A stretch of DNA of 64,000 nucleotides from Oscillospiraceae bacterium (GTDB taxonomy: Bacteria > Bacillota > Clostridia > UMGS1840). Below the pieces are notes generated by a model, which saw only the letters and a program-made list of their open reading frames with translations, was not told the DNA's origin and did not search any database. The stretch spans positions 55,733 through 119,732 of the forward strand of contig SVKD01000002.1 of the NCBI GenBank assembly GCA_015068645.1, in the 5' to 3' direction. How positions within the stretch are numbered: position 1 is the stretch's first letter; each line of letters starts with the position of its first letter. This document shows positions 30,504-42,676 of the stretch, piece by piece. The translations under genes were made by a program, and so were the position numbers.

Positions 30504-32735
30504 ATGGTATTATGTTCAAAATGTAAAAAGAATATGGCAGTTGTGTTCGTCACAAAAATGGAAAACGGTAAGGAAGTTTCCGAAGGATTGTGCTTCCAGT
30601 GTGCCAAAGAGTTGGGAATTAAGCCCTTTGATAAGATGCTTTCCCAGTTTGGCATCAATGAAGATGATTTTATGAATATGAACGAACAGCTTACCGAAAT
30701 GATGGAACAAGGCGCTATGTTCGGCGACAATATGATGATGATGCCCATGGATGAAATGCCTGAGGAGGCAGAAATCCGTCCGGAGGACATTGGCATCAAA
30801 CAGAAAAACAAAAAACAGAAAAATCAAAAGAAAACTCCGTTGGAATCCTACGGCACCAACTTAAACGACAAGGCTCGTTTGGGCGAAATCGACGCGGTCA
30901 TCGGCAGAAATGCAGAAATCAACCGCGTAATTCACATCTTAAACCGCCGTACCAAAAATAATCCGGTTCTTTTAGGGGAACCCGGTGTTGGGAAAACTGC
31001 CATTGCAGAAGGTCTGGCATTAAAGATTGTGAAAGGCGAAGTGCCTCACAAGCTGTTAAACGCTCAGATTTTCTTAGTGGATTTTGCGGGAATGATTGCA
31101 GGCACCCAGTTTCGGGGTCAGTTTGAGCAGCGCTTAAAAGCTGTGGTAACAGACGCCATCGAACGTGGCAACGTGATCTTGGTGATTGACGAAATTCACA
31201 ACATCGTGGCGGCAGGTGATGCCAACGGCGCAATGAATGCGGCAAACATCTTAAAACCCTATCTGGCAAAAGGTCAGCTTCGCATGATTGGTGCCACCAC
31301 CCCCGAAGAATACAGAAAGCATATCGAAAAGGATTCTGCCTTAGAACGCCGTTTTGCAACGGTTATGGTGGAAGAACCCGATGTGTATGAAACCATTGAA
31401 ATCTTAAAAGGTATCCGTGGCTACTACGAAGATTATCACAAGGTAACCTATTCCGATGAAGCTATTGAAACCGCTGCTGTAATGGCAGACCGCTATATTT
31501 TCGATAGAAAACTGCCCGATAAAGCAATTGATTTGATGGACGAAAGCGGTGCGGTAAAAAATGTGACCAACGATTCTTTGGTGGAACTGGAAAAATTAAA
31601 GGCAGAACTTGCCTCCATCGTGGAATTAAAGGAAGCATCGGTGGAAAACGATTCCATCGACGATTATCAGAAGGCGGCAGACTATAAGATTAAAGAATGT
31701 CAGCTTCGTGACAGAATTGCTGAGCTGGAAAAAGGGGCATACCGTGCGGTAACCACCGAAGATATTGCCACCGTGATTGAAAATATCACAAGAATTCCCG
31801 TTCGCAATATCACAGGCATTGAAGCGAAAAATCTGATTCACTTAGAAGAGAAACTGAAACTCCGCATTGCAGGTCAGGAAGACGGGGTAAACGCCGTTGC
31901 CGCTGCAGTTCGCCGTGGCAGAGCAGGTCTTTCTTCCAAAAGAAAGCCCACCTCTTTCATTTTCGCAGGTCCTACGGGTGTGGGGAAAACCGAGCTGGTA
32001 AAAACCTTGGCGTATGAACTGTTTGGCAGTGAGGAAAGCATCATTCGTTTTGATATGAGTGAATATATGGAAAAGCACACCGCATCTAAGCTGATTGGTT
32101 CCCCTCCGGGATACGTTGGCTACGATGATGCAGGGCTTCTTACCGAAAAAATCAGAAAGAAACCCTATTCCATTATTCTCTTTGACGAAATTGAAAAAGC
32201 ACATCCTGATGTGTTTAACCTGCTTCTGCAGATTTTAGATGACGGTATTTTAACCGATAGCCACGGCAAAACCGTGCGGTTCTATAATGCCATCATCATT
32301 ATGACCACCAATGCAGGCAGTGACTATAAAGCCGCATCCTTAGGTTTTTCGGAAGGAAACGAAGGAAAAGCCAAAGATAAGGTGAATAAAGCACTTCGTG
32401 AATTTTTCCGTCCCGAGTTTTTAAACCGAGTGGATAAAGTTGTGGTGTTTGACCCGTTGGGCAAAGAAGAACTTCGCAAAATTACCCACATTATGCTCTC
32501 GGATATTAAAAAGAATCTCAGAGATAAAAAGCTTTATGTTTCCTTTACCGATGCGTTAGTGGAATACCTGATCGAAAACGGTTTTGATGAAAAATTCGGT
32601 GCAAGACCCCTTCGCCGCTTGATTGAACGTGAAGTGGAAGACAAGATTGCAGATCTTTTCATTTCGGGCGAATTGCTCGCCGGCGAAACCTTTACGGCAG
32701 ATTATCAAAATAACGAAGTAACCATTACAAAATAA
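30504..32735 (+). CDS. Clp ATPase with N-terminal zinc finger (ClpE/ClpC-like)
   Basis: CxxC...CxxC N-terminus; GEPGVGKT and GPTGVGKT Walker A motifs; FRPEFLNR; GARPLRR. Confidence 0.9.
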
Positions 32736-32736
32736 T

Positions 32737-32770
32737 AAAAAGAACGCTATCAATGATAGCGTTCTTTTTT
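32737..32770 (+). terminator. Intrinsic terminator after the Clp ATPase
   Basis: AAAAAGAACGCTATC-AAT-GATAGCGTTCTTTTT. Confidence 0.85.
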
Positions 32771-32789
32771 GTTTGAAAGAAGAAAAATT

Positions 32790-32887
32790 GTAGGGACAGA
32801 TGTGGTCATCTGTCCGATTTTATGATTTCGCATAACATAAAGAATAGCAATACCAAAAAACGGGACGGTGTGGGCACCGTCCCCTAC
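32790..32887. repeat. Inverted GTAG-REP doublet
   Basis: GTAGGGACAGATGTGGTCATCTGTCCG ... CGGGACGGTGTGGGCACCGTCCCCTAC. Confidence 0.8.
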
Positions 32888-32890
32888 ATT

Positions 32891-33139
32891 TTATAAATTA
32901 TGATTTCTCGTATATTTTCGTAACGATTCAATTTTTTCTAATTTCAAAGCGTAATTTTTATTGCGGGGACACTGGGTATGAACACATTCGTTGCAATCAT
33001 GTTTTCCACGTAATTCAAAGCAACAACACATATAATTACATTCATCGCAACAGCACTCATTTCCGTTTTCACCATTACCGGGACAGTCTTTTCCGCCATT
33101 TCCTGGAATCAGTTCTATTCCTGTAATATCAATAATCAT
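32891..33139 (-). CDS. 82-aa cysteine-rich hypothetical protein
   Basis: MIIDITGIELIPGNGGKDCPGNG...ECCCDECNYMCCC...; 11 Cys; AGGGGG RBS. Confidence 0.65.
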   Translation of the reverse strand: MIIDITGIELIPGNGGKDCPGNGENGNECCCDECNYMCCCFELRGKHDCNECVHTQCPRNKNYALKLEKIESLRKYTRNHNL

Positions 33140-33156
33140 AGATTTTCCCCCTATAA

Positions 33157-33306
33157 TAAAAAAGTGTGCCTTCAACCGAAGACACACCGAAAAAGTATTA
33201 TCCTCGATTGTTGCGACACAATCCATACCCCAACGGATAAGAAATAGAGGAAATACCTTTTACCAAGAGTATTTCCATTGGGGTACAATATATAGGATTA
33301 TGTCGC
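33157..33306 (-). ncRNA. Candidate structured leader RNA or sRNA ending in an intrinsic terminator
   Basis: Nested stems 33211-33224/33295-33308, 33226-33237/33274-33285 and 33249-33257/33267-33276; terminator 33164-33187 with U tract. Confidence 0.5.
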
Positions 33307-33312
33307 AAATTT

Positions 33313-33341
33313 ATTGTATCATAAAAATTTTAAAATTACAA
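33313..33341 (-). promoter_or_regulatory. Sigma-A-type promoter of the leader and Cys-rich gene
   Basis: TTGTAA-17 bp-TACAAT with extended TG. Confidence 0.6.
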
Positions 33342-33409
33342 GTATTTTATCAAAGAAAAATTGTAGGGACAGATGTGTAAATTGTTCTATGCAACTTTAT
33401 CTCAAAAAC

Positions 33410-33449
33410 AAAAAGACGAAATTCTTTGAAAAAGAACTTCGTCTTTTTT
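33410..33449. terminator. Third copy of the AAAAGACGAAATTCT terminator
   Basis: AAAAGACGAAATTCT-ttgaaaa-AGAACTTCGTCTTTT. Confidence 0.75.
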
Positions 33450-33463
33450 ATTGATCCTAACGT

Positions 33464-33809
33464 AAGGCGATGAGAAATGGATGCAGAATTCGGAAATCGA
33501 ATCAAGGCAACACCTTGACGAGCCCGAAGCCGTAGTACTGCGTACAGCATAACGGTACGCCGAGCGGTGAGATTCACGGATTATGCGCCATTTATCAAGC
33601 CGTTCCCAAAGGCGAAGAAAAAGGGCATAGAATTTGCAAACTGAACCGAAGGGTTACCCGAAGGCGTACATTGGTACGCCGAGCGGTGAAGTTTGCAGAT
33701 AGCAAAAGGCATTCTAATCAAAATTTGTGCCAACAAATTTTCACCTTAAACAAAAAGGCATAGGAAATAAATCCTATGCCTTTTGCGGTCTATGTTCTTT
33801 TTCAAGCCG
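33464..33809 (+). repeat. Tandem family C copies (short 33464-33604, long 33609-33809), abutting carB stop
   Basis: Both end in TCAAGCCGT; the second is followed directly by the carB stop. Confidence 0.85.
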
Positions 33810-36800
33810 TTAGAAAGAAACTTTACCTTCAAAGGATTTCACCGCCGGTCCAGTCATTTGAATAGTTGAATCTGTGTAACGGATTTTTAAATCTCCGCCG
33901 GGGAGCTTCACGGTGATATCGGTATCTTTTTCACAGTGACCGTTTAAGATTGCTGCAACAGCTGCTGCGCAAGCACCGGTACCGCAAGCTAAGGTTTCGC
34001 CGATACCACGTTCCCAAACACGCATTTTCAGGGTGTTTTTATCAATCACAGTAACAAATTCCACGTTTACCCGATCGGGGAACATGGGATGATATTCCAG
34101 TTCGGGACCAATTTTTTCTAAGTTTACGGTGTCTAAGTTTTCAGTGAATACTACTGCGTGAGGATTGCCAACTGCTAAGCAGGTTACGTTAAAGGTTTCG
34201 TCTGCAACACTGATGGGTTCGTTAATCACCGGTTCTTTGTCGGAAACCACGGGAACCAGTTCGGGTTTGGTTTCTGCCTTGCCCATATCTACCTGTGCTG
34301 CAACTACTTCGCCCTCCATGGTGTAAACCTTCAGCTTTTTCACACCGCTTAAGGTTTCAATTTCCATATCTTCACGGGGAACAATGCCCTTGTCATACAG
34401 GTATTTACCCACGCAACGGATAGCGTTTCCGCCCATTCTGCCCTCGGTGCCATCTGCATTGAAGATTCTCATTTTCGCATCAGCAATTTTGGAAGCTTCA
34501 ATGACCACCGCACCGTCTGCACCGATGCCAAAGTGACGGTCGGAAAGACGGATTGCCAGTGCTTCGGGGTTATCAATCTGCTTGTCTAAGCAATCAAAAT
34601 AGATATAATCGTTGCCCAAGCTCTGCATTTTGGTAAATTCCACAGTCACTTTATCTTCGCGCATATTGTTGATATCCACGATTTCGATGCTTTGTTCAGA
34701 GTATTTACCTTTCATAGAGTTGATAACAGCGTTTGCAGTGTCAATAGAGGTGAAGCAGGGAACGCTTCTTTCTACCGCTTTTCTTCTGATTTTTACGCTG
34801 TCACGTTCGGGCAGTCTACCTTTTGCGGAAGTGGAAACTACAAAGTTTACTTTACCGCTTTCAATCAAGGTTAGAGTGTTGTTTTCTGCATTTTCGTGAA
34901 TTTTATCCACGGGGATAACAGGAAGACCTGCATCGGAGAGCACTTTTGCGGTGCCGTGAGTGGAATATAAGGTGAATCCTAAATCGTGGAATCCTTTTGC
35001 CACGCCGTAAATTTCCGCTTTGTCGGAATTTCTTACGGAAATGAACACACCGCCTTTTTTATGGAGCTGATAGCCGGCTCCGATTAAGCCTTTATACAGG
35101 GCTTCTTCCAAGTTTGCACCGATACCTAAAACTTCCCCGGTGGATTTCATTTCAGGCCCTAAGTGAATGTCTACCCCTAAGAGTTTGGCAAAGGAGAACA
35201 CAGGCACTTTGACTGCCACATAGGGAGAATTTCTGTAAAGACCGGTGCCGTAACCCATATCTTTTAATTTTTCGCCCAACATTGCACGGGTTGCCAAGTC
35301 AATCATAGGCACCTTGGTTACCTTGCTGATGTAGGGAACAGTTCTGGAAGATCTGGGATTTACTTCGATGACATATAATTCGTTATCATACACCAGATAC
35401 TGGATATTTACCAGACCTTTGGTGTTTAAGGCAACGGCTAATTTCTTGGTAGCATCAATGATTTTTTGAATCATGGGAACATCTAAGTTAAACGCAGGAT
35501 ATACGGCGATAGAGTCACCGGAGTGTACCCCTGCACGTTCAATATGTTCCATAATACCGGGGATTAAAATGTCTTCCCCGTCGGAAATGGCGTCAACTTC
35601 AATTTCAGTACCCATTAAATATTTGTCAATCAAAATGGGGTTTTCGTCCAGACCGTGCAAAATAATCTTCATATATTCCTTGGTGTCGTTATCGTTCCAA
35701 GCAATAATCATATTCTGACCGCCCAATACATAAGACGGACGAATCAGCACGGGATAACCGATACGGTTTGCAGTTTCCAATGCTTCTTCTTCGGTTAACA
35801 CGGTAAAGCCCTGAGGACGTTTGATGTTGAGTCTTTCAAGTAAATCGTCAAAACGTTCTCTGTCTTCCGCCATATCAATGCTGTCTGCACTGGTACCCAA
35901 GATTCTTACCCCGTTTTCCTGGAGGAAGTTGGTCAGTTTAATGGCAGTACCGCCACCAAATGCAACCACCACGCCGTAGGGTTTTTCGGTGTGAATCACG
36001 TTCATCACGTCTTCGGGGTTTAAGGGTTCAAAATACAGACGGTTTGCAGTGTCAAAGTCGGTGGAAACGGTTTCGGGGTTATTGTTGACGATAACCACTT
36101 CGTAACCTGCTTCCTGGAGCGCCCATACACAGTGTACGGATGCATAGTCAAACTCAATCCCCTGACCGATACGGATCGGACCGGAACCGAATACGATAAT
36201 GGTCTTTTTGTCGGTGGGATTGTTATCAATAAATTCTCTTGCTTCGTTGGCTTCTTCATAGGAAGAATAGAAGTAGGGGGTCTGTGCATCAAATTCCCCT
36301 GCACAGGTGTCTACCATCTTATAGGAAGCATAGATTTTTTCAGGAACTTTCTGATTGGATAAGTTTTCAATCACCTTGTCCAAAAAGCCCATTTTCTTCG
36401 CTTCTAAGTGAAGTTCTTTGGTTAAGGGTTCTTCTTTCAAGCGACATTCCATCTTGTAAAGATTATAGAGCTTGGATAAGAACCAACGGTCAATCTTGGT
36501 GATATCATAGATGGTGTCGATAGAAACGCCACGGGTGATAGCTTCATACACCACGAAAATTCTTTCGTCGTTGCACTGATAAAGTTTTTCGTTAATCACC
36601 TCATCGGATAAGCCAACCAAGTCTTTATGGCGCATAGAATCCTTGGAAATTTCTGCTCCGCGGACTGCTTTCATAATGGCTTCTTCAAAGGTGGCACCGA
36701 TTGCCATAACTTCCCCGGTAGCCTTCATCTGAGTGCCTAAATCACGTTTTGCATACACAAATTTATCGAAGGGGAATTTGGGGAATTTTACTACCACATA

Positions 36801-37853
36801 GTCAATGGCAGGTTCAAAACAAGCATAGGTTTTGCCGGTTACTGCATTTAAAATTTCGTCCAGCTGATAGCCGATTGCAATTTTTGCCGCAACTTTTGCA
36901 ATGGGATAACCGGTTGCTTTGGATGCAAGTGCAGAAGAACGGGAAACTCTGGGGTTTACCTCGATAACCGCATATTCAAAACTGTTGGGATTTAATGCGA
37001 ACTGACAGTTACAACCGCCTTCGATTTTTAATTCGTTCAAAATGTCAAGCGCTGCACGTCTTAACATGGAATATTCGTAGTCAGACAGAGAAACCGCAGG
37101 TGCGATAACAATGGAGTCACCGGTATGCACACCAACAGGGTCTAAGTTTTCCATACTGCAGACGGTGATGGAATTGCCTTTGCTGTCACGAATTACTTCA
37201 AATTCGATTTCCTTCCAGCCGGACACACATTTTTCCACCAAAACCTGAGTAATGGGAGAAAGACGCAGACCGTTGGTGGTAATCTCAATCATTTCTTCTT
37301 CGTTATTTACAATACCGCCGCCGGTACCGCCTAAGGTAAATGCGGGACGGATAATCAACGGATAGCCGATGGAATGTGCAAAATCCAGGGCGTCTTCCAA
37401 AGTGTTTACAACCTTGGAGGGGATAACGGGCTGGTTGATTTTTTCCATCATATCCTTAAACATCTGACGGTCTTCTGCCTTGTCGATGGTTTCAGGATTT
37501 GCGCCCAATAATTTTACGTTATGCTTGTCCAAAAAGCCTTCTTTTGCCAGCTGCATAGACAGGGTTAAGCCTGTCTGACCGCCTAAGGTTGAGAGTAAGC
37601 TATCCGGCTTTTCTTTTTCGATAATTCTTTTGATAACGGGCAGAGTTAAGGGTTCAATGTAGATTTTATCAGCCATTTTGCTGTCGGTCATAATGGTTGC
37701 AGGGTTGGAGTTTACCAAAACAACTTCCAGACCGTCTTCTTTTAAAGCACGACAAGCCTGGGTGCCTGCATAGTCAAACTCTGCTGCCTGACCAATGACA
37801 ATGGGGCCGGAACCGATGACTAAAACTTTTTTGATTTCTTTATTTAACGGCAT
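33810..37853 (-). CDS. carB: Carbamoyl-phosphate synthetase large subunit fused to a C-terminal DapF-like domain
   Basis: GSGPIVIGQAAEFDYAG, duplicated ATP-grasp halves, MGS domain; then KMQSLGND, FNADG, GNPH, ERG and LACGTG DapF motifs in one reading frame. Confidence 0.93.
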   Translation of the reverse strand: MPLNKEIKKVLVIGSGPIVIGQAAEFDYAGTQACRALKEDGLEVVLVNSNPATIMTDSKMADKIYIEPLTLPVIKRIIEKEKPDSLLSTLGGQTGLTLSMQLAKEGFLDKHNVKLLGANPETIDKAEDRQMFKDMMEKINQPVIPSKVVNTLEDALDFAHSIGYPLIIRPAFTLGGTGGGIVNNEEEMIEITTNGLRLSPITQVLVEKCVSGWKEIEFEVIRDSKGNSITVCSMENLDPVGVHTGDSIVIAPAVSLSDYEYSMLRRAALDILNELKIEGGCNCQFALNPNSFEYAVIEVNPRVSRSSALASKATGYPIAKVAAKIAIGYQLDEILNAVTGKTYACFEPAIDYVVVKFPKFPFDKFVYAKRDLGTQMKATGEVMAIGATFEEAIMKAVRGAEISKDSMRHKDLVGLSDEVINEKLYQCNDERIFVVYEAITRGVSIDTIYDITKIDRWFLSKLYNLYKMECRLKEEPLTKELHLEAKKMGFLDKVIENLSNQKVPEKIYASYKMVDTCAGEFDAQTPYFYSSYEEANEAREFIDNNPTDKKTIIVFGSGPIRIGQGIEFDYASVHCVWALQEAGYEVVIVNNNPETVSTDFDTANRLYFEPLNPEDVMNVIHTEKPYGVVVAFGGGTAIKLTNFLQENGVRILGTSADSIDMAEDRERFDDLLERLNIKRPQGFTVLTEEEALETANRIGYPVLIRPSYVLGGQNMIIAWNDNDTKEYMKIILHGLDENPILIDKYLMGTEIEVDAISDGEDILIPGIMEHIERAGVHSGDSIAVYPAFNLDVPMIQKIIDATKKLAVALNTKGLVNIQYLVYDNELYVIEVNPRSSRTVPYISKVTKVPMIDLATRAMLGEKLKDMGYGTGLYRNSPYVAVKVPVFSFAKLLGVDIHLGPEMKSTGEVLGIGANLEEALYKGLIGAGYQLHKKGGVFISVRNSDKAEIYGVAKGFHDLGFTLYSTHGTAKVLSDAGLPVIPVDKIHENAENNTLTLIESGKVNFVVSTSAKGRLPERDSVKIRRKAVERSVPCFTSIDTANAVINSMKGKYSEQSIEIVDINNMREDKVTVEFTKMQSLGNDYIYFDCLDKQIDNPEALAIRLSDRHFGIGADGAVVIEASKIADAKMRIFNADGTEGRMGGNAIRCVGKYLYDKGIVPREDMEIETLSGVKKLKVYTMEGEVVAAQVDMGKAETKPELVPVVSDKEPVINEPISVADETFNVTCLAVGNPHAVVFTENLDTVNLEKIGPELEYHPMFPDRVNVEFVTVIDKNTLKMRVWERGIGETLACGTGACAAAVAAILNGHCEKDTDITVKLPGGDLKIRYTDSTIQMTGPAVKSFEGKVSF

Positions 37854-38910
37854 CTTTTCTATCCTCCATCATCTTTGTAAATCTGCCCACCAAAAATCCG
37901 GGATTCATGGGCTCGGAAAAGCTTTCAATGTTAAACTGCACGGAAAATGCAGGAATGTTGGCATAGTCAATTCCCTCAACCGTGCCATCGTTTACATTAC
38001 GATACGAAACTTTACCAAAAGCTTCCACAGAATCGTTTACCACCTGGTAGCTGTGATTCTGAGAGGAAATGTAAACCTTGCCGGTGGTTTCATTGCGAAC
38101 GGGAACAGATGCACCACGGTGGCCGAATTTCAGTTTTTCAATTTTTGCACCCTGAGACAGCGCCAACAGCTGGTGTCCCAAACCAATTCCCAGAGTGGGA
38201 ATGTCTTTTAACTGACGGATTTCGGTAATCACATCGGTTAAGGTAGTGGGGTCCCCGGGTCCGCCGGATAAAATCACACCGTCGGGCTTTAATGCGAGAA
38301 TTTCTTCTGCCTGAGTGTTGTAGGGAACCTTGGTCACATCACAGCCTGCATCTAAAAATGCTTTTGCCATATTGTTGTTGCAACCAAAATCCCACATGAC
38401 CACATTGTATTTGCCTTCTTTTGCAGGAATGGTTTCCTTTTCGGAAACGGATACGGATTTTACCGCATCCACAATTTTATAACTTGCAATATCGTCAGTA
38501 AAATCAGGGGTAAAGGAAATTTTTGCGTTCATAGTGCCGGCGTCTCTTACCATTTTGGTCAGCTTTCTGGTATCAATGCCGTAAATACCGGGGATGTCTT
38601 TTTCCTTTAAAAAAGTGTCAAGATCACCCTCCAAACGCCAGTTGGACGGTGCCTGACACCAATCTTTCACAATATAACCAAAACAAGACGCTTTTTTGCC
38701 TGCCATTTCTTCTGCGATGGTACCGTGACAACCCATTTCGGGGAAAGTGGAAATCACAAGCTGACCGAAATTCGCAGGGTCGGTCAGAGTATCCATATAA
38801 CCAAGCATATTGGTGGAAAACACAAGTTCGCCTACCGCTTCACGGTAAGCGCCAAAGCTTTTTCCACGAAAAACTGTTTTGTTTTCCAGAATCAAGTACA
38901 TCTCTTTCAT
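37840..38910 (-). CDS. carA: Carbamoyl-phosphate synthetase small subunit with a degenerate glutaminase site
   Basis: GELVFST.M.GY..TLTDP, GIDTRKLT, GPGDP; GIGLGHQ and QFNIE in place of GICLGHQ and QFHPE. Confidence 0.92.
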   Translation of the reverse strand: MKEMYLILENKTVFRGKSFGAYREAVGELVFSTNMLGYMDTLTDPANFGQLVISTFPEMGCHGTIAEEMAGKKASCFGYIVKDWCQAPSNWRLEGDLDTFLKEKDIPGIYGIDTRKLTKMVRDAGTMNAKISFTPDFTDDIASYKIVDAVKSVSVSEKETIPAKEGKYNVVMWDFGCNNNMAKAFLDAGCDVTKVPYNTQAEEILALKPDGVILSGGPGDPTTLTDVITEIRQLKDIPTLGIGLGHQLLALSQGAKIEKLKFGHRGASVPVRNETTGKVYISSQNHSYQVVNDSVEAFGKVSYRNVNDGTVEGIDYANIPAFSVQFNIESFSEPMNPGFLVGRFTKMMEDRKDAVK

Positions 38911-39229
38911 ATGAGCGAAAACTTCCTTTCTGATTGTGTGTATCGTAGCCAAAAATCAACGATTTTAAGCGGTTTTTTCTAAAAATGGGTAAAATTTTTT
39001 CCGAAATCACAAGGGATTTCGGTTTTTTTAGAAAAGCAGATGCTATTCTTTTCGAAATTCAGGAGAAATTTCTTTCTATTTATTGTATCATTTCTGACGA
39101 TAATTGTCAATGATTTTTTCTTGGTTTTTTTCGTATATTTCTACAATTTTTCGGGATTGGAAAATCAAAAAATTTCCTTGAAAAACCGTAAGGATTCTAA
39201 AGATAAAATCCTTACGGTTTTTTGCTTAA

Positions 39230-39350
39230 AATAATGAAGAGTGAAGATTGAATAATGAATAATTATGGTGGCACCCTTCGGGTGCATTATAATGCAGGCA
39301 ACGCCTGCCACCGCAATTTTTCGTTATTCATTTTTCATTATTCGTTCTTC
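39230..39350. repeat. Family A element
   Basis: Heptamer arms around GGTGGCACCC-TTC-GGGTGC and GCAGGCAACGCCTGCCACCGCAAT. Confidence 0.8.
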
Positions 39351-39353
39351 AAC

Positions 39354-39496
39354 TGTGCGCCATTTGTCGAGCCATTCCCCGATAGCGATGGAAAAATTGT
39401 TCAGAATGTCGAATCAAACCCGAAGGGGAGTCCCCGAAGCCGTACCGTGTGTACGGCGAGTGGTTTGCATTCGGCATTATGGGCAATTTTAACGAG
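39354..39496 (+). repeat. Degenerate family C copy (plus terminus remnant), abutting pyrH stop
   Basis: CCCCGAAGCCGTAC-GTACGGCGAG core; TTTTAACGAG then CTA (pyrH stop). Confidence 0.7.
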
Positions 39497-40201
39497 CTAT
39501 TTCACCAGAGTACCGATAGTTTCGCCGGTGATGGCCTTAATAATATTTTCCGGCTGCTGCAATCCAAACACGTGAATGGGAATGTTATTATCCATACACA
39601 GAGAAGTTGCGGTGGAATCCATAACACCTAAACCACGGTTTAACACATCGATGTAGGAAATGTTGTCGAATTTTTTTGCATCGGGATTTTTTGCGGGGTC
39701 GGAATCGTAAACAGCGTCCACTTTTTTCGCGAGCAGGATTACGTCTGCACTGATTTCAGCAGCACGAAGAGCTGCAGCAGTGTCGGTGGAGAAGTAGGGG
39801 TTACCGGTTCCGCAACCAAAAATTACAACTCTGCCTTTGTCTAAATGACGTTCTGCTCTGCCACGGATATAGGGTTCTGCAATCTGACGCATATCAATGG
39901 CAGTCTGCACTCTTGCCTGAACGCCTAATGCTTCCAGGGAATCTGCAATTGCCAGAGAGTTGATGGCAGTTGCCAACATACCCATATGGTCTGCACGGGT
40001 TCTGTCCATATTTTCGCCGGTTCTTCCTCTCCAGAAGTTACCGCCGCCTACTACGATAGCAACCTGAACGCCCATCGATACACATTTTTTTACCTGTTTT
40101 CCGATATCTGAAATCACATTAAAGTCTAAACCAAAGCCGTTAGCCCCTGCCAACGCTTCGCCACTAATTTTTAACAATACTCTTTTATAAATCGGTTGCA
40201 T
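39497..40201 (-). CDS. pyrH: UMP kinase
   Basis: [49 protein letters not shown]. Confidence 0.96.
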
Positions 40202-40343
40202 TTTGTATGCTCCTCTCTCTATATAAAACACATCTCTGTTTTCTTTTCCACTTTCAACTTGTCCTCCCAACCTTTGAGAGAACCGCCGCCGAAGGCGGGA
40301 AAAACACCCATTGGGTGCCGGAAAAACAGCTAATAGCTGCCGT

Positions 40344-40382
40344 AAAAATGGCAAGCATCAAAGGATTGTGCTTGCCATTTTT
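40344..40382 (-). terminator. Terminator after tsf
   Basis: AAAAATGGCAAGCA...TGCTTGCCATTTTT. Confidence 0.8.
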
Positions 40383-40393
40383 GAAATCGTTAA

Positions 40394-41281
40394 TTATTTA
40401 GACATATTTGCAACTTCTTCTGCAAAGTTGTCAACTTTCTTTTCTAAGCCTTCGCCTTTTTCAAAACGAACAAATTTCACCAGTTTTACGCCTTTGGAAG
40501 CTAAATACTGTTCCACGGTTTTGTCGGAATCTTTCACGAATTCCTGCTGGTTTAAGCAGTTTAAGGTGTAGAATTTAGAAATTCTGCCCATTACCATTTT
40601 TTCGATAATCTGGTCGGGTTTCCCTGCAGATTTGGGATCGTTTTTAATCTGTTCGATTAAGATTTTCTTTTCTTTTTCCACATCTTCTGCGGGAACGGTA
40701 GATTTATCTAAATAGGTGGGGTTGATAGCTGCAATCTGCATAGCTGCATCACGAGCTGCTTCGTAAGCGTCGCCGTCTAAAGCGTTTTCAGCCTGAACCA
40801 TAACACCGATTCTGCCGCCGCCATGGATATAGGTAGCAACAGCACCTTCGTATCTTTCAAATCTTCTGATGGTCATGTTTTCGCCGATGGTTAAGATTTT
40901 GTCTCTTAACATTTCTTCAACGCTCATACCGGAATCTTTGTAAGCCAATTTTAATAAAGCGTCAACATCTGCGGGATTTTCTTTTGCAACGATTTCAGCC
41001 AAATCTTTTACGAAGGTCTGGAAATCAGCATTTTTACCAACGAAGTCGGTTTCGGAGTTAACTTCGATGATAACACCAACGCCATCGCAGGTGAAATCGG
41101 AAACGATACCTTCCGCAGCAATTCTGCCTGCTTTTTTTGCAGCAGCTGCTAAACCTTTTTCTCTTAAAAATTCAACTGCTTTGTCCATATCGCCATTGGT
41201 TTCGGATAATGCTTTTTTACAGTCCATCATACCGCAACCGGTGATTTCTCTTAATTCTTTAACCATCTGAGGTGTAACCAT
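40394..41281 (-). CDS. tsf: Elongation factor Ts
   Basis: VKELREITGCGMMDCKKAL, EVNSETDFV, YIHGGGRIGV, FVRFEKGEG. Confidence 0.97.
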   Translation of the reverse strand: MVTPQMVKELREITGCGMMDCKKALSETNGDMDKAVEFLREKGLAAAAKKAGRIAAEGIVSDFTCDGVGVIIEVNSETDFVGKNADFQTFVKDLAEIVAKENPADVDALLKLAYKDSGMSVEEMLRDKILTIGENMTIRRFERYEGAVATYIHGGGRIGVMVQAENALDGDAYEAARDAAMQIAAINPTYLDKSTVPAEDVEKEKKILIEQIKNDPKSAGKPDQIIEKMVMGRISKFYTLNCLNQQEFVKDSDKTVEQYLASKGVKLVKFVRFEKGEGLEKKVDNFAEEVANMSK

Positions 41282-41360
41282 AATAAAATTCTCCTTTTCT
41301 TTGTCATATGGAAAATAGGCAAGCGCAAGGTTGCCTATTTTCTTAAAAATCAATTTCTAA

Positions 41361-42092
41361 TTATTCAGCTGCAGCTTCGTCGGTTTCTTCTTCCATTGCC
41401 TGAGCTGCGCCTTCTCTGCCTTCGATCATAGCGTTTGCCATGGTTTCAGCAATCAGTTTAACAGCGCGGATCGCATCGTCGTTACCGGGGATTACATAAT
41501 CCACTTCATCGGGATCACAGTTGGTATCTACGATTGCAACAACGGGGATATGCAGTTTCTTAGCTTCTAAGATTGCATTTCTTTCTTTTCTGGGGTCAAC
41601 AACAAACAGAACGCTGGGGAGCTTTTTCATGTTTTTGATACCGCCCAGGTATTTTTCTAATTTTTCTCTTTCTAAGTTTAATTTGATAACTTCTTTTTTG
41701 GGAAGTAAATCAAAGGTACCGTCTTCTTCCATTTTGTTTAACTGGAAGAGTCTGTCAATTCTTTTACGGATGGTTTTGAAGTTGGTTAACATACCGCCTA
41801 ACCATCTTGCGTTTACATAGTACATACCAATTCTTTCAGCTTCTGCTTTTACAGCGTCTGCAGCCTGTTTTTTGGTACCAACAAACAGGATTTCACCGCC
41901 CTGAGCTGCGATATCTCTAACAAAGTAGTAAGCTTCTTCTACTTTTTTCAGAGTTTTCTGCAGGTCGATGATGTAGATTCCGTTTCTTTCGGTGAAGATG
42001 TAGGGAGCCATTTTGGGGTTCCATCTTCTGGTCTGATGACCGAAGTGAACGCCGGCTTCCAATAACTGTTTCATGGAGATTACGTTGCTCAT
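41361..42092 (-). CDS. rpsB: 30S ribosomal protein S2
   Basis: [46 protein letters not shown]. Confidence 0.98.
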
Positions 42093-42104
42093 GATAAATT
42101 TCCT

Positions 42105-42220
42105 TTCTGGTTGTTCCTCGGCGCCGCGTAAAGCCTTGAAAATGCCTTACTTACAAACGAACAAAGCCATAAAAAAATTTAACTTTGTCACCGGGTTTGT
42201 ATAAGGGCGCGTGCGAATTC
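42105..42220 (-). ncRNA. rpsB 5' leader (t44-like S2 autoregulatory RNA)
   Basis: Transcript begins ...CGCACGCGCC and ends GCGGCGCCGAGG before the RBS, at the position known for the rpsB/t44 leader. Confidence 0.5.
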
Positions 42221-42226
42221 TCGAAC

Positions 42227-42255
42227 ATTATAGCACACCTTTTTTCAAAAATCAA
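42227..42255 (-). promoter_or_regulatory. rpsB promoter
   Basis: TTGATT-17 bp-TATAAT with extended TG. Confidence 0.7.
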
Positions 42256-42436
42256 GTTTTTTTGGTAATTTTTTTTATTTTTTTGAAATTTCTCTGTAAA
42301 AAGTATCCTCCCCAAGCCTTCTTTTTATATTACAAATTCAATACAATCACTAAAAAATAGTTGAAATTTCAAAAGAAATATGATATGATATTATTGAAAT
42401 GAATGCAACGCTACAGAAAGAAAGGAAGGATACCTA

Positions 42437-42676
42437 ATGACCGAAACAAGAATGGTTCAGATTCCCAAAGAGGAAGAAAAAAACATCCGTGAAATTTTGC
42501 ATTCCGTATACGAAGCTCTGAAGGAAAAGGGATATAACCCCATCAATCAGATGGTTGGTTATGTGCTTTCGGGGGACCCGACCTATATCACCAGCCACAA
42601 CGGAGCAAGAGCTATGATCGGTAAACTGGAACGGGACGATATTTTAGAAGAGCTGTTCCGCTTCTATTTAAATTAA
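42437..42676 (+). CDS. ireB: IreB/ReoM (DUF965) phosphoprotein
   Basis: [44 protein letters not shown]. Confidence 0.88.

Follow-up and report, generated by a model that had tools for sequence, protein, structure and literature searches.

Why should a carbamoyl-phosphate synthase (CPS) carry a diaminopimelate (DAP) epimerase domain at the end of its large subunit, and what can such a domain still do once one of its two catalytic cysteines is gone? The question is raised by a gene of an Oscillospiraceae bacterium, a member of the gut-type Clostridia (GenBank assembly GCA_015068645.1). It lies in a 64,000-nucleotide stretch of contig SVKD01000002.1 (positions 55,733 to 119,732, forward strand), here called the window, whose own numbering is used throughout. 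The gene fuses CarB, the large subunit of CPS, to a domain derived from the epimerase DapF in which glycine replaces the first catalytic cysteine. An earlier interpretation made from the letters of the window, here called the sequence-only reading, had proposed that this domain senses DAP or an amino acid, or that it is a lyase supplying ammonia in place of a dead small subunit, CarA. Comparison with related fusions favours, with moderate confidence, a pseudo-epimerase that is kept as a non-catalytic module of CPS and that would bind a DAP-like ligand, have a role in the oligomeric state, or both.

Each half of the protein is recognised by the profile of its family. Residues 1-1050 score 1503 bits against the CarB profile NF003671 (full length; cut-off 599), and the Pfam domains D1, D2 (twice), D3 and MGS are all matched; the pre-ATP-grasp domain, both ATP-grasp halves, the oligomerisation domain and the MGS-like allosteric domain are thus all there. 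Residues 1072-1345 score 286 bits against the DapF profile TIGR00652 (cut-off 114.65), covering profile positions 2-268 of 270, and PF01678 matches the domain twice. The end of CarB and the junction read KGKYSEQSIEIVDI at residues 1048-1061, and the linker holds a motif, E-L-V-D-I-N-x-M-R, that is conserved among CarB-DapF fusions. All the DapF motifs listed by the sequence-only reading are found in this one 1347-residue frame: KMQSLGND stands at residue 1075, FNADG at 1131, MGGNA at 1140, GNPH at 1229, NVEF at 1263, ERG at 1281 and LACGTG at 1288.

DapF has a pair of catalytic cysteines, Cys73 and Cys217, and the fused domain has Gly1141 and Cys1290 in their place. In an alignment with Bacillus anthracis DapF (PDB 2otn; E 2e-71, 42% identity), Gly1141 pairs with the catalytic cysteine of '...EGKSCGNG...'. 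The GGC codon stands exactly where it had been reported, and the TGC of the second cysteine is kept. The claim that the substrate-binding residues remain also proved correct: the DAP-contacting residues N11, N64, G74, N75, N157, H159, N190, E208, R209, G218 and S/T219 are all present in the window protein.

The fold is likewise that of DapF. An AlphaFold2 (AF2) model of residues 930-1347 has a mean predicted local distance difference test score (pLDDT) of 89 and a predicted template modelling score (pTM) of 0.67, and the linker is its sole low-confidence stretch (pLDDT 54-66). In a Foldseek search of the PDB, the model matched DapF structures at a target-normalised template modelling score (TM-score) of 0.74-0.91. 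Each of the top 26 matches is either a DapF or an O-ureidoserine racemase, which is closely related to DapF (0.70-0.91), so that model and search agree on a two-lobed DapF fold. The idea that the domain docks rigidly against the allosteric domain of CarB was considered and rejected, since at this pTM and linker pLDDT the model gives no confident orientation of the two.

The glycine is fixed in the genus of the window genome. This genome (1.76 Mb, 97% complete) is one of 11 species genomes of its genus; all 11 carry the fusion and all 11 read MGGNA, as do metagenome proteins at 82% and 78% identity. The ten full-length fusion genes of the genus have 1347 codons each, with zero indels. The pairwise ratio of nonsynonymous to synonymous substitution rates (dN/dS) within the genus is 0.029 for the CarB part and 0.070 for the DapF domain, at a dS of about 0.8. 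TGC and GGC differ by a single base, and the glycine might therefore be an artefact, either a sequencing or assembly error or the mark of a gene in the course of decay. Against this stand the same codon change in 11 independent species genomes, the metagenome proteins, a dN/dS of 0.07, and reading frames without frameshifts or indels. An error or a strain-specific change is ruled out by these data, since all ten other species of the genus share MGGNA, and an artefact of any kind can practically be discounted. The domain is not decaying: selection keeps its fold, its DAP-contacting residues and its second cysteine. One species of the genus (L021) has an extra canonical two-cysteine DapF, 42% identical, in a 305-residue frame on a 6-kb contig (G012:C83:92-868), which may be contamination or a recent acquisition.

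What would an epimerase do in this cell? The window genome has DapA, DapB, Ddh and LysA, all well above their cut-offs. Profile searches found no DapL (best 110 bits against 364.7 for TIGR03542, and 287 against 593 for TIGR03540), no DapH (best 61 bits against 231.75) and no second DapF. The searches for DapL and DapH thus reveal no route that produces LL-DAP; DapD had no specific search. Ddh makes meso-DAP directly, so that with no known source of LL-DAP an epimerase has no evident task. The sequence-only reading had pointed to a separate dapF or ddh as informative, and the genome holds the Ddh route and lacks a second DapF.

Fusions of CarB and DapF, typically 1345-1360 residues long, are found widely in Clostridia. 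An even sample of 400 genomes of this class (sample 1) gave 54 further fusions in many families, and a scan of named genomes (sample 2) gave 51 more, from Ruminococcus, Oscillospiraceae, Christensenellales, Neglectibacter and others. A search with the DapF part, limited to fusion-length proteins, returned more than 6300 matches, and the best 120 of these were read: 101 have M-C-G-N, 12 have M-G-G-N, 6 have serine and 2 have alanine. Among the 54 fusions of sample 1, the first cysteine is kept in 29 and replaced in 25 (17 Ala, 4 Ser, 3 Gly and one further Ala). The sequence-only reading had held that its case would fail if homologous fusions mostly kept MCGN. They do so among the 120 closest matches, and about half do in the class-wide sample, but the variant is recurrent and fixed and is therefore not an error.

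The loss of the first cysteine has occurred many times. A maximum likelihood tree built from the CarB parts of 113 fusions requires no fewer than 13 state changes for the first cysteine and one for the second. One old clade (40 rows) has only alanine or glycine at the first site; in the other clade this cysteine was lost in at least nine separate lineages, the window's genus among them. The replacements in the tree set are alanine (40), glycine (13) and serine (9), and never another residue. Every stand-alone DapF seen has both cysteines.

The remainder of the domain has changed little. N64, G74, N75, N157, H159, N190, E208, R209, C217, G218 and T219 are unchanged in nearly all one-cysteine fusions examined, and a set of 41 positions shows conservation of at least 95% in intact and disabled domains alike. 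Across the family, the DapF part has diverged 1.58 times as much as CarB in disabled domains and 1.42 times as much in intact ones, so the constraint on disabled domains is nearly undiminished. What a fused domain looks like once that constraint is lost can be seen in an uncultured Acutalibacter metagenome-assembled genome (MAG; L122), where it is fully degenerate (NLSASNSNKRGGA at the key positions) and a canonical stand-alone DapF and dapL lie on the same contig.

Other substitutions that separate the two classes were also considered. Most of them, such as Y1085F, C1088N and S1104C, mark a single old clade and were rejected as convergent changes. The one that does recur, in several independent lineages, is M1228V/I/L. 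Residue 1228 (34170-34172), which precedes G-N-P-H, is methionine in 96% of two-cysteine DapFs and valine, isoleucine or leucine in most one-cysteine domains; the change may be a second-shell adjustment to the lost thiol.

A few fusions depart from the common pattern. In a Christensenellales MAG (L093), the first cysteine is kept, the changes C217S, E208D and R209K are found, and CarA is dead. Dehalobacter sp. DCM (P0010) has lost both cysteines (MSGNA / LAAGTS), and a further protein (P0035) has serine at the first site and no match to the motif of the second. Four Treponema/Spirochaetaceae MAGs (L102, L125, L129 and L140) carry the fusion with alanine at the first site. They are nested within the Clostridia tree, which suggests lateral transfer.

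The two-cysteine fusions point to the origin of the family. In sample 1, 27 of the 28 genomes with such a fusion have DapL (TIGR03542 above cut-off). In many genomes of both samples (L024, L026, L022, L029, L027, L038, L064, L035 and L076) dapL immediately follows the two-cysteine fusion. The ancestral protein was therefore a true bifunctional enzyme whose DapF domain served the aminotransferase route, and a carA-carB::dapF-dapL operon probably explains how the fusion arose.

The presence of DapL also tells which genomes keep a DapF with both cysteines. Across 105 fusion genomes, a two-cysteine DapF, fused or stand-alone, occurs in 61 of 66 genomes with DapL and in 15 of 39 without it (Fisher p 4e-9). 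The two also change together when phylogenetically independent pairs are compared, in 8.9 cases against 0.1 (sign test, median p 0.004). Where DapL is present, a separate DapF accompanies 22 of 27 disabled fusions and 8 of 39 intact ones. Genomes with a one-cysteine fusion form two groups: those with DapL and a separate two-cysteine dapF, which usually adjoins dapL, and those without DapL. Ddh was tried as an explanation of the cysteine loss and rejected: 46 of 56 fusion genomes have it regardless of the state of the cysteine, and DapL is the informative gene instead. One stand-alone dapF that adjoins dapL (G430:C48:15098-15925) has one in-frame TGA, which may mark a pseudogene or be due to a sequencing error or to recoding.

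Since DapL tracks two-cysteine DapF, the one-cysteine domains do not appear to be the epimerase of the pathway, and the domain of the window is almost certainly no longer the epimerase of its cell. It is DapF-derived by sequence, fold and pocket, and it is classed apart from DAP epimerase because both the catalytic pair and the pathway context are missing.

Table 1. Features of the carA-carB::dapF locus, in window coordinates
Feature	Position	Strand	Basis and remarks
carB::dapF fusion gene	33810..37853	-	Single open frame, 1347 codons + stop
CarB part, residues 1-1050	34704..37853	-	Two ATP-grasp halves, oligomerisation domain, MGS-like allosteric domain (Pfam CPSase_L_D1/D2/D3, MGS)
Linker, residues 1051-1071, 21 aa (…SEQSIEIVDINNMREDKVTVE)	34641..34703	-	Between the CarB and DapF profile matches
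DapF-derived domain, residues 1072-1347, 276 codons, one catalytic Cys gone	33813..34640	-	TIGR00652
Gly1141 (GGC), at the first catalytic Cys site (Cys73 of Haemophilus influenzae / E. coli DapF)	34431..34433	-	Alignment, codon check
Cys1290 (TGC), second catalytic Cys kept (Cys217 equivalent), invariant motif ACGTGACA	33984..33986	-	Codon check, alignments
carA (small subunit), overlaps the carB start by 14 nt	37840..38910	-	NF009475, 365 bits
Promoter-like TTGACA-17-TACAAT (TG-extended), upstream of carA	39082..39110	-	11/12 consensus positions; consensus match only
Terminator-like hairpin, 18-bp stem + T run, ~360 nt downstream of the fusion gene	33410..33448	-	Consensus match only

Downstream of the fusion gene, past the hairpin, lies a small cysteine-rich open reading frame of 111 residues with many CxxC-like pairs (32891-33226, minus strand). 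A search of 32500-42500 with Rfam found no regulatory RNA upstream of carA. Its one match was a ylbH leader (RF00516) elsewhere, at 32732-32822 on the plus strand, weak at 30 bits where the gathering score is 50, which is probably due to chance.

The small subunit has lost catalytic residues as well. In a live CarA, the Cys-His-Glu triad is carried by the motifs G-I-C-L-G-H-Q and Q-F-H-P-E. The window CarA reads GIGLGHQ / QFNIES, with the glutaminase cysteine changed to glycine (codon 38182-38184) and the histidine to asparagine, and the same motifs are found in every genome of the genus from which carA was recovered. Only one carA and one carB occur in the window genome, and both pyrB and argF are present. 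CarA with the fusion protein appears to be the only recognisable source of carbamoyl phosphate in this genome (carbamate kinase was not searched for). The enzyme must therefore be functional, and it presumably runs on free ammonia.

Are the two losses linked? The sequence-only reading had proposed that the MGGN variant occurs together with a CarA that lacks its triad. In raw counts it does: a disabled DapF stands beside 25 of 27 dead CarAs, whereas 31 of the 71 live CarAs have one (Fisher p 7e-6). On the tree (103 rows), at least 15 changes between a live and a dead CarA took place beside these fusions, and CarA and the first cysteine were lost jointly at least three independent times, in the window's genus, in L028/L046 and in L065/L068. 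Of the phylogenetically independent pairs, 3.8 go in the same direction and 0.3 in the opposite one, which is not significant (p about 0.125).

Two stricter rules were considered and rejected. According to one, a dead CarA occurs only with a one-cysteine DapF. In sample 1 this held: none of the 28 two-cysteine fusions had a dead CarA, and every dead CarA lay beside a one-cysteine domain. It was broken in sample 2 by two genomes with DapL and both DapF cysteines. These are Ruminococcus sp. FC2018 (L076, NZ_JHXH01000006.1, dapL directly downstream), whose CarA reads AVGMGHE / QFDPEL, and L098, whose CarA reads GIGLGHQ / QFNPDA. According to the other rule, a dead CarA goes with the loss of DapL, as if a module for low ammonium had been switched off as a whole. 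DapL is missing from 17 of 18 dead-CarA genomes of sample 1 and present in 6 of 10 of sample 2. Taken together, it is absent from 20 of 27 genomes with a dead CarA and from 13 of 71 with a live one; the pairs (4.8 against 1.1) are not significant.

Genomes with a dead CarA are also smaller (p 8e-5; medians 1.8 and 2.3 Mb), and this points to a cause common to both losses more than to a single coupled enzyme system. Because 31 one-cysteine domains stand beside a live CarA and two dead CarAs beside a two-cysteine domain, the domain is neither needed for the loss of the glutaminase nor specific to it. The association is read here as a genuine tendency that has a shared cause, and obligatory functional coupling is unsupported by the data. 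The proposed co-occurrence thus survives as a tendency and not as a rule.

These observations can be arranged into a model for the evolution of the fused domain. The process would start with a bifunctional CarB-DapF, encoded in a carA-carB::dapF-dapL operon, whose DapF domain epimerised the LL-DAP made by DapL. In the window's genus the DapL branch is absent, and DapA, DapB and Ddh make meso-DAP directly for LysA. The change of the first acid/base cysteine to glycine, which carries no proton, would have abolished two-base epimerisation. DapL uses glutamate and CarA uses glutamine, whereas Ddh uses free ammonium, as a CPS with a dead CarA presumably does. An ammonia-rich, reductive lifestyle would remove both DapL and the glutaminase, and the losses of the glutaminase and of the cysteine are read as its parallel but separable consequences, which tend to fall in the same small-genome lineages. 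The domain would persist because it still binds a DAP-like ligand, holds the oligomeric state next to the allosteric domain of CarB, or does both.

Both parts of such a role have precedents. DapF is strongly stabilised by its substrate and its product, as its higher melting temperature shows (PMC13728532), and the E. coli double mutant DapF(C73A,C217A) has no epimerase activity and still binds and activates RppH (PMC4227774). Since glycine is unable to act as acid or base and this mutant is inactive, two-base epimerisation would be lost in the window protein. Since selection acts on the pocket, the fold and the second cysteine, the domain is read as a non-catalytic module of CPS, probably a ligand-binding or structural add-on. 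The sensor proposed by the sequence-only reading, taken as a non-catalytic domain that binds DAP, fits this picture.

Several observations weigh against the non-catalytic module. The second cysteine is nearly always kept (13 changes of the first against 1 of the second), which ligand binding alone does not explain, and this asymmetry could reflect residual chemistry. DapL is accompanied by nothing but a one-cysteine fused DapF in three Treponema/Spirochaetaceae-type genomes and in two Clostridia MAGs. Some one-cysteine domains could still epimerise in such genomes; alternatively, the bins could be incomplete, or the cells could use DapF2, an Alr-like, non-homologous DAP epimerase (PMC13759103) that was not checked for there. 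In the window's genus, the DapF/CarB divergence ratio is 2.9, more relaxed than in other one-cysteine lineages. AF2 places the domain without confidence against the allosteric domain, so that rigid allosteric coupling is unsupported and cannot be claimed. Finally, we know of no metabolic logic by which DAP should control CPS.

The nearest alternative is a module that is structural only: folding or assembly of CarB would now depend on the domain, which would have no physiological ligand. Solved structures show DapF as an obligate homodimer (PMC13728532), and the mutant that activates RppH shows that a catalytically dead DapF can work as a protein partner (PMC4227774). The persistence of the domain in genomes with no source of LL-DAP, and its more relaxed evolution relative to CarB within the window's genus, agree with a scaffold too. 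A scaffold, however, has no need to keep about ten ligand contacts and a second cysteine over deep divergence and in 13 or more independent lineages, and the pocket does decay where constraint is gone, as in L122 (NLSASNSNKRGGA). A purely structural role is therefore possible but rather unlikely. A working epimerase, in which water or another residue replaces the lost thiol and LL-DAP is made from meso-DAP in a cell that has only Ddh, would account for the intact pocket and second cysteine and for the few DapL genomes with a one-cysteine fused DapF only. Natural Ser/Ser DapFs reported as active (Lamer et al. 2025, as cited in PMC13728532) indicate that the rule of two cysteines is not absolute. 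Glycine and alanine, by contrast, have no side chain that can carry a proton, DapF(C73A,C217A) is inactive (PMC4227774), and the window genome has no evident need for LL-DAP. Moreover, the separate two-cysteine DapF found in 22 of 27 DapL genomes with a one-cysteine fusion, usually by dapL, would be redundant if the fused domain worked. Continued epimerisation is accordingly very improbable.

The lyase proposed by the sequence-only reading would be a one-base catalyst. Its second cysteine would take the alpha-proton from a substrate that resembles DAP but has a leaving group in the beta position, such as lanthionine or a 3-substituted DAP. Elimination would yield an enamine, and hydrolysis of the enamine a keto acid and ammonia for the glutaminase-less CPS. 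The first cysteine has changed at least 13 times and the second once, which suggests that the second is chemically needed, and dead CarAs are enriched beside disabled DapFs in raw counts. Related one-cysteine folds are dehydratases, and 3-hydroxyproline dehydratases are among the Foldseek matches, at identities of 13-15%, far under those of DapF. Single-cysteine DapF mutants, moreover, eliminate HF from 3-fluoro-DAP. DAP itself, on the other hand, has no beta leaving group, and neither a candidate substrate nor a gene supplying one was found. As set out above, 31 one-cysteine domains have a live CarA beside them and two dead CarAs have a two-cysteine domain. The domain also lies at the far C-terminus by the allosteric domain, not at the end of CarA and the ammonia tunnel, and the AF2 model shows no defined docking. 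No positive evidence for ammonia supply emerged, and a lyase is very improbable.

The non-catalytic module can be compared with several known systems. Closest are the two-cysteine CarB-DapF fusions of Clostridia (Ruminococcus, Oscillospiraceae, Christensenellales and others), which share its length and junction motif, have carA directly upstream, and are 57-63% identical in the DapF part. Unlike the window protein, with its glycine, no DapL and a dead CarA, they have M-C-G-N and A-C-G-T-G, almost always DapL, and a live CarA. Stand-alone DapFs (TIGR00652; PDB 2otn, 9mro, 2gke and 4ijz) share the fold, 36-43% identity, the substrate contacts and the second cysteine, but are free homodimers with two catalytic cysteines. 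An example for a role of the DapF fold that depends on protein contacts and not on chemistry is E. coli DapF as activator of RppH (PMC4227774, PMC6061791; PDB 6d13), where the C73A/C217A mutant keeps its full activity towards the partner. That DapF, unlike the one studied here, is unfused and still the epimerase of its cell, and its partner is a Nudix hydrolase rather than CPS. Another natural DapF without the canonical pair is that of Anabaena (Lamer et al. 2025, J Mol Biol 437:169375, via PMC13728532), which according to that citation has serine at both sites, in contrast to Gly + Cys, and is active. The one-cysteine members of the proline racemase and DapF-like superfamily, such as trans-3-hydroxy-L-proline dehydratases (PDB 6r76, 4k7g), have the same superfamily fold, and in them the loss of one cysteine turns a racemase into an eliminase. 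Their substrates carry a beta-hydroxyl group, whereas the pocket of the fused domain is of the DapF type and DAP has no beta-hydroxyl. Its sequence and its pocket set the domain apart from these eliminases.

At the level of the holoenzyme, an analogy can be drawn with vertebrate CPS I, which depends on ammonia, has a dead glutaminase domain and requires an obligatory effector in its C-terminal domain. In both systems the glutaminase site is dead yet retained, and there is extra regulatory capacity at the C-terminus; the analogy extends to the holoenzyme only. CPS I is a single polypeptide without a DapF domain, and its effector, N-acetylglutamate, binds the MGS-like domain itself. A tentative extension of the non-catalytic module, to which only a small probability is given, is that the one-cysteine DapF is the effector domain of a bacterial, CPS I-like, ammonia-dependent CPS. 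It would clamp meso-DAP, or a compound much like it, and leave it unconverted; closure of its lobes or dimerisation next to the allosteric domain would tune carbamoyl phosphate to the supply of wall and lysine precursors. If this were true, the at least 13 convergent one-cysteine knock-outs would represent selection for a sensor that does not consume its ligand, and a CPS with such a module would more readily lose its glutaminase site, as has happened repeatedly.

The families of DapF and CarB are themselves known; what appears to be new is a recurrent one-cysteine pseudo-epimerase module on CPS. Full-text searches of the literature found nothing relevant on a CarB-DapF fusion, and public annotation (NCBI) labels such proteins plainly as 'carbamoyl-phosphate synthase large subunit'. 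A textbook enzyme thus has a widespread form with an extra, epimerase-derived domain and no paper found that describes it. Plain CarB labels carry a practical risk, since pathway tools may count a disabled domain as DapF and so mispredict lysine and peptidoglycan metabolism in many MAGs from the gut. Pathway context, DapL or Ddh, predicts the state of DapF in a genome. The family forms a natural series that leads from a bifunctional enzyme through convergent one-cysteine pseudo-epimerases to a fully decayed domain. It opens to direct test the questions of how an enzyme becomes a pseudoenzyme or sensor, whether CPS runs on free ammonia in Clostridia of the gut and rumen, and whether wall precursors may be wired to the synthesis of pyrimidines and arginine.

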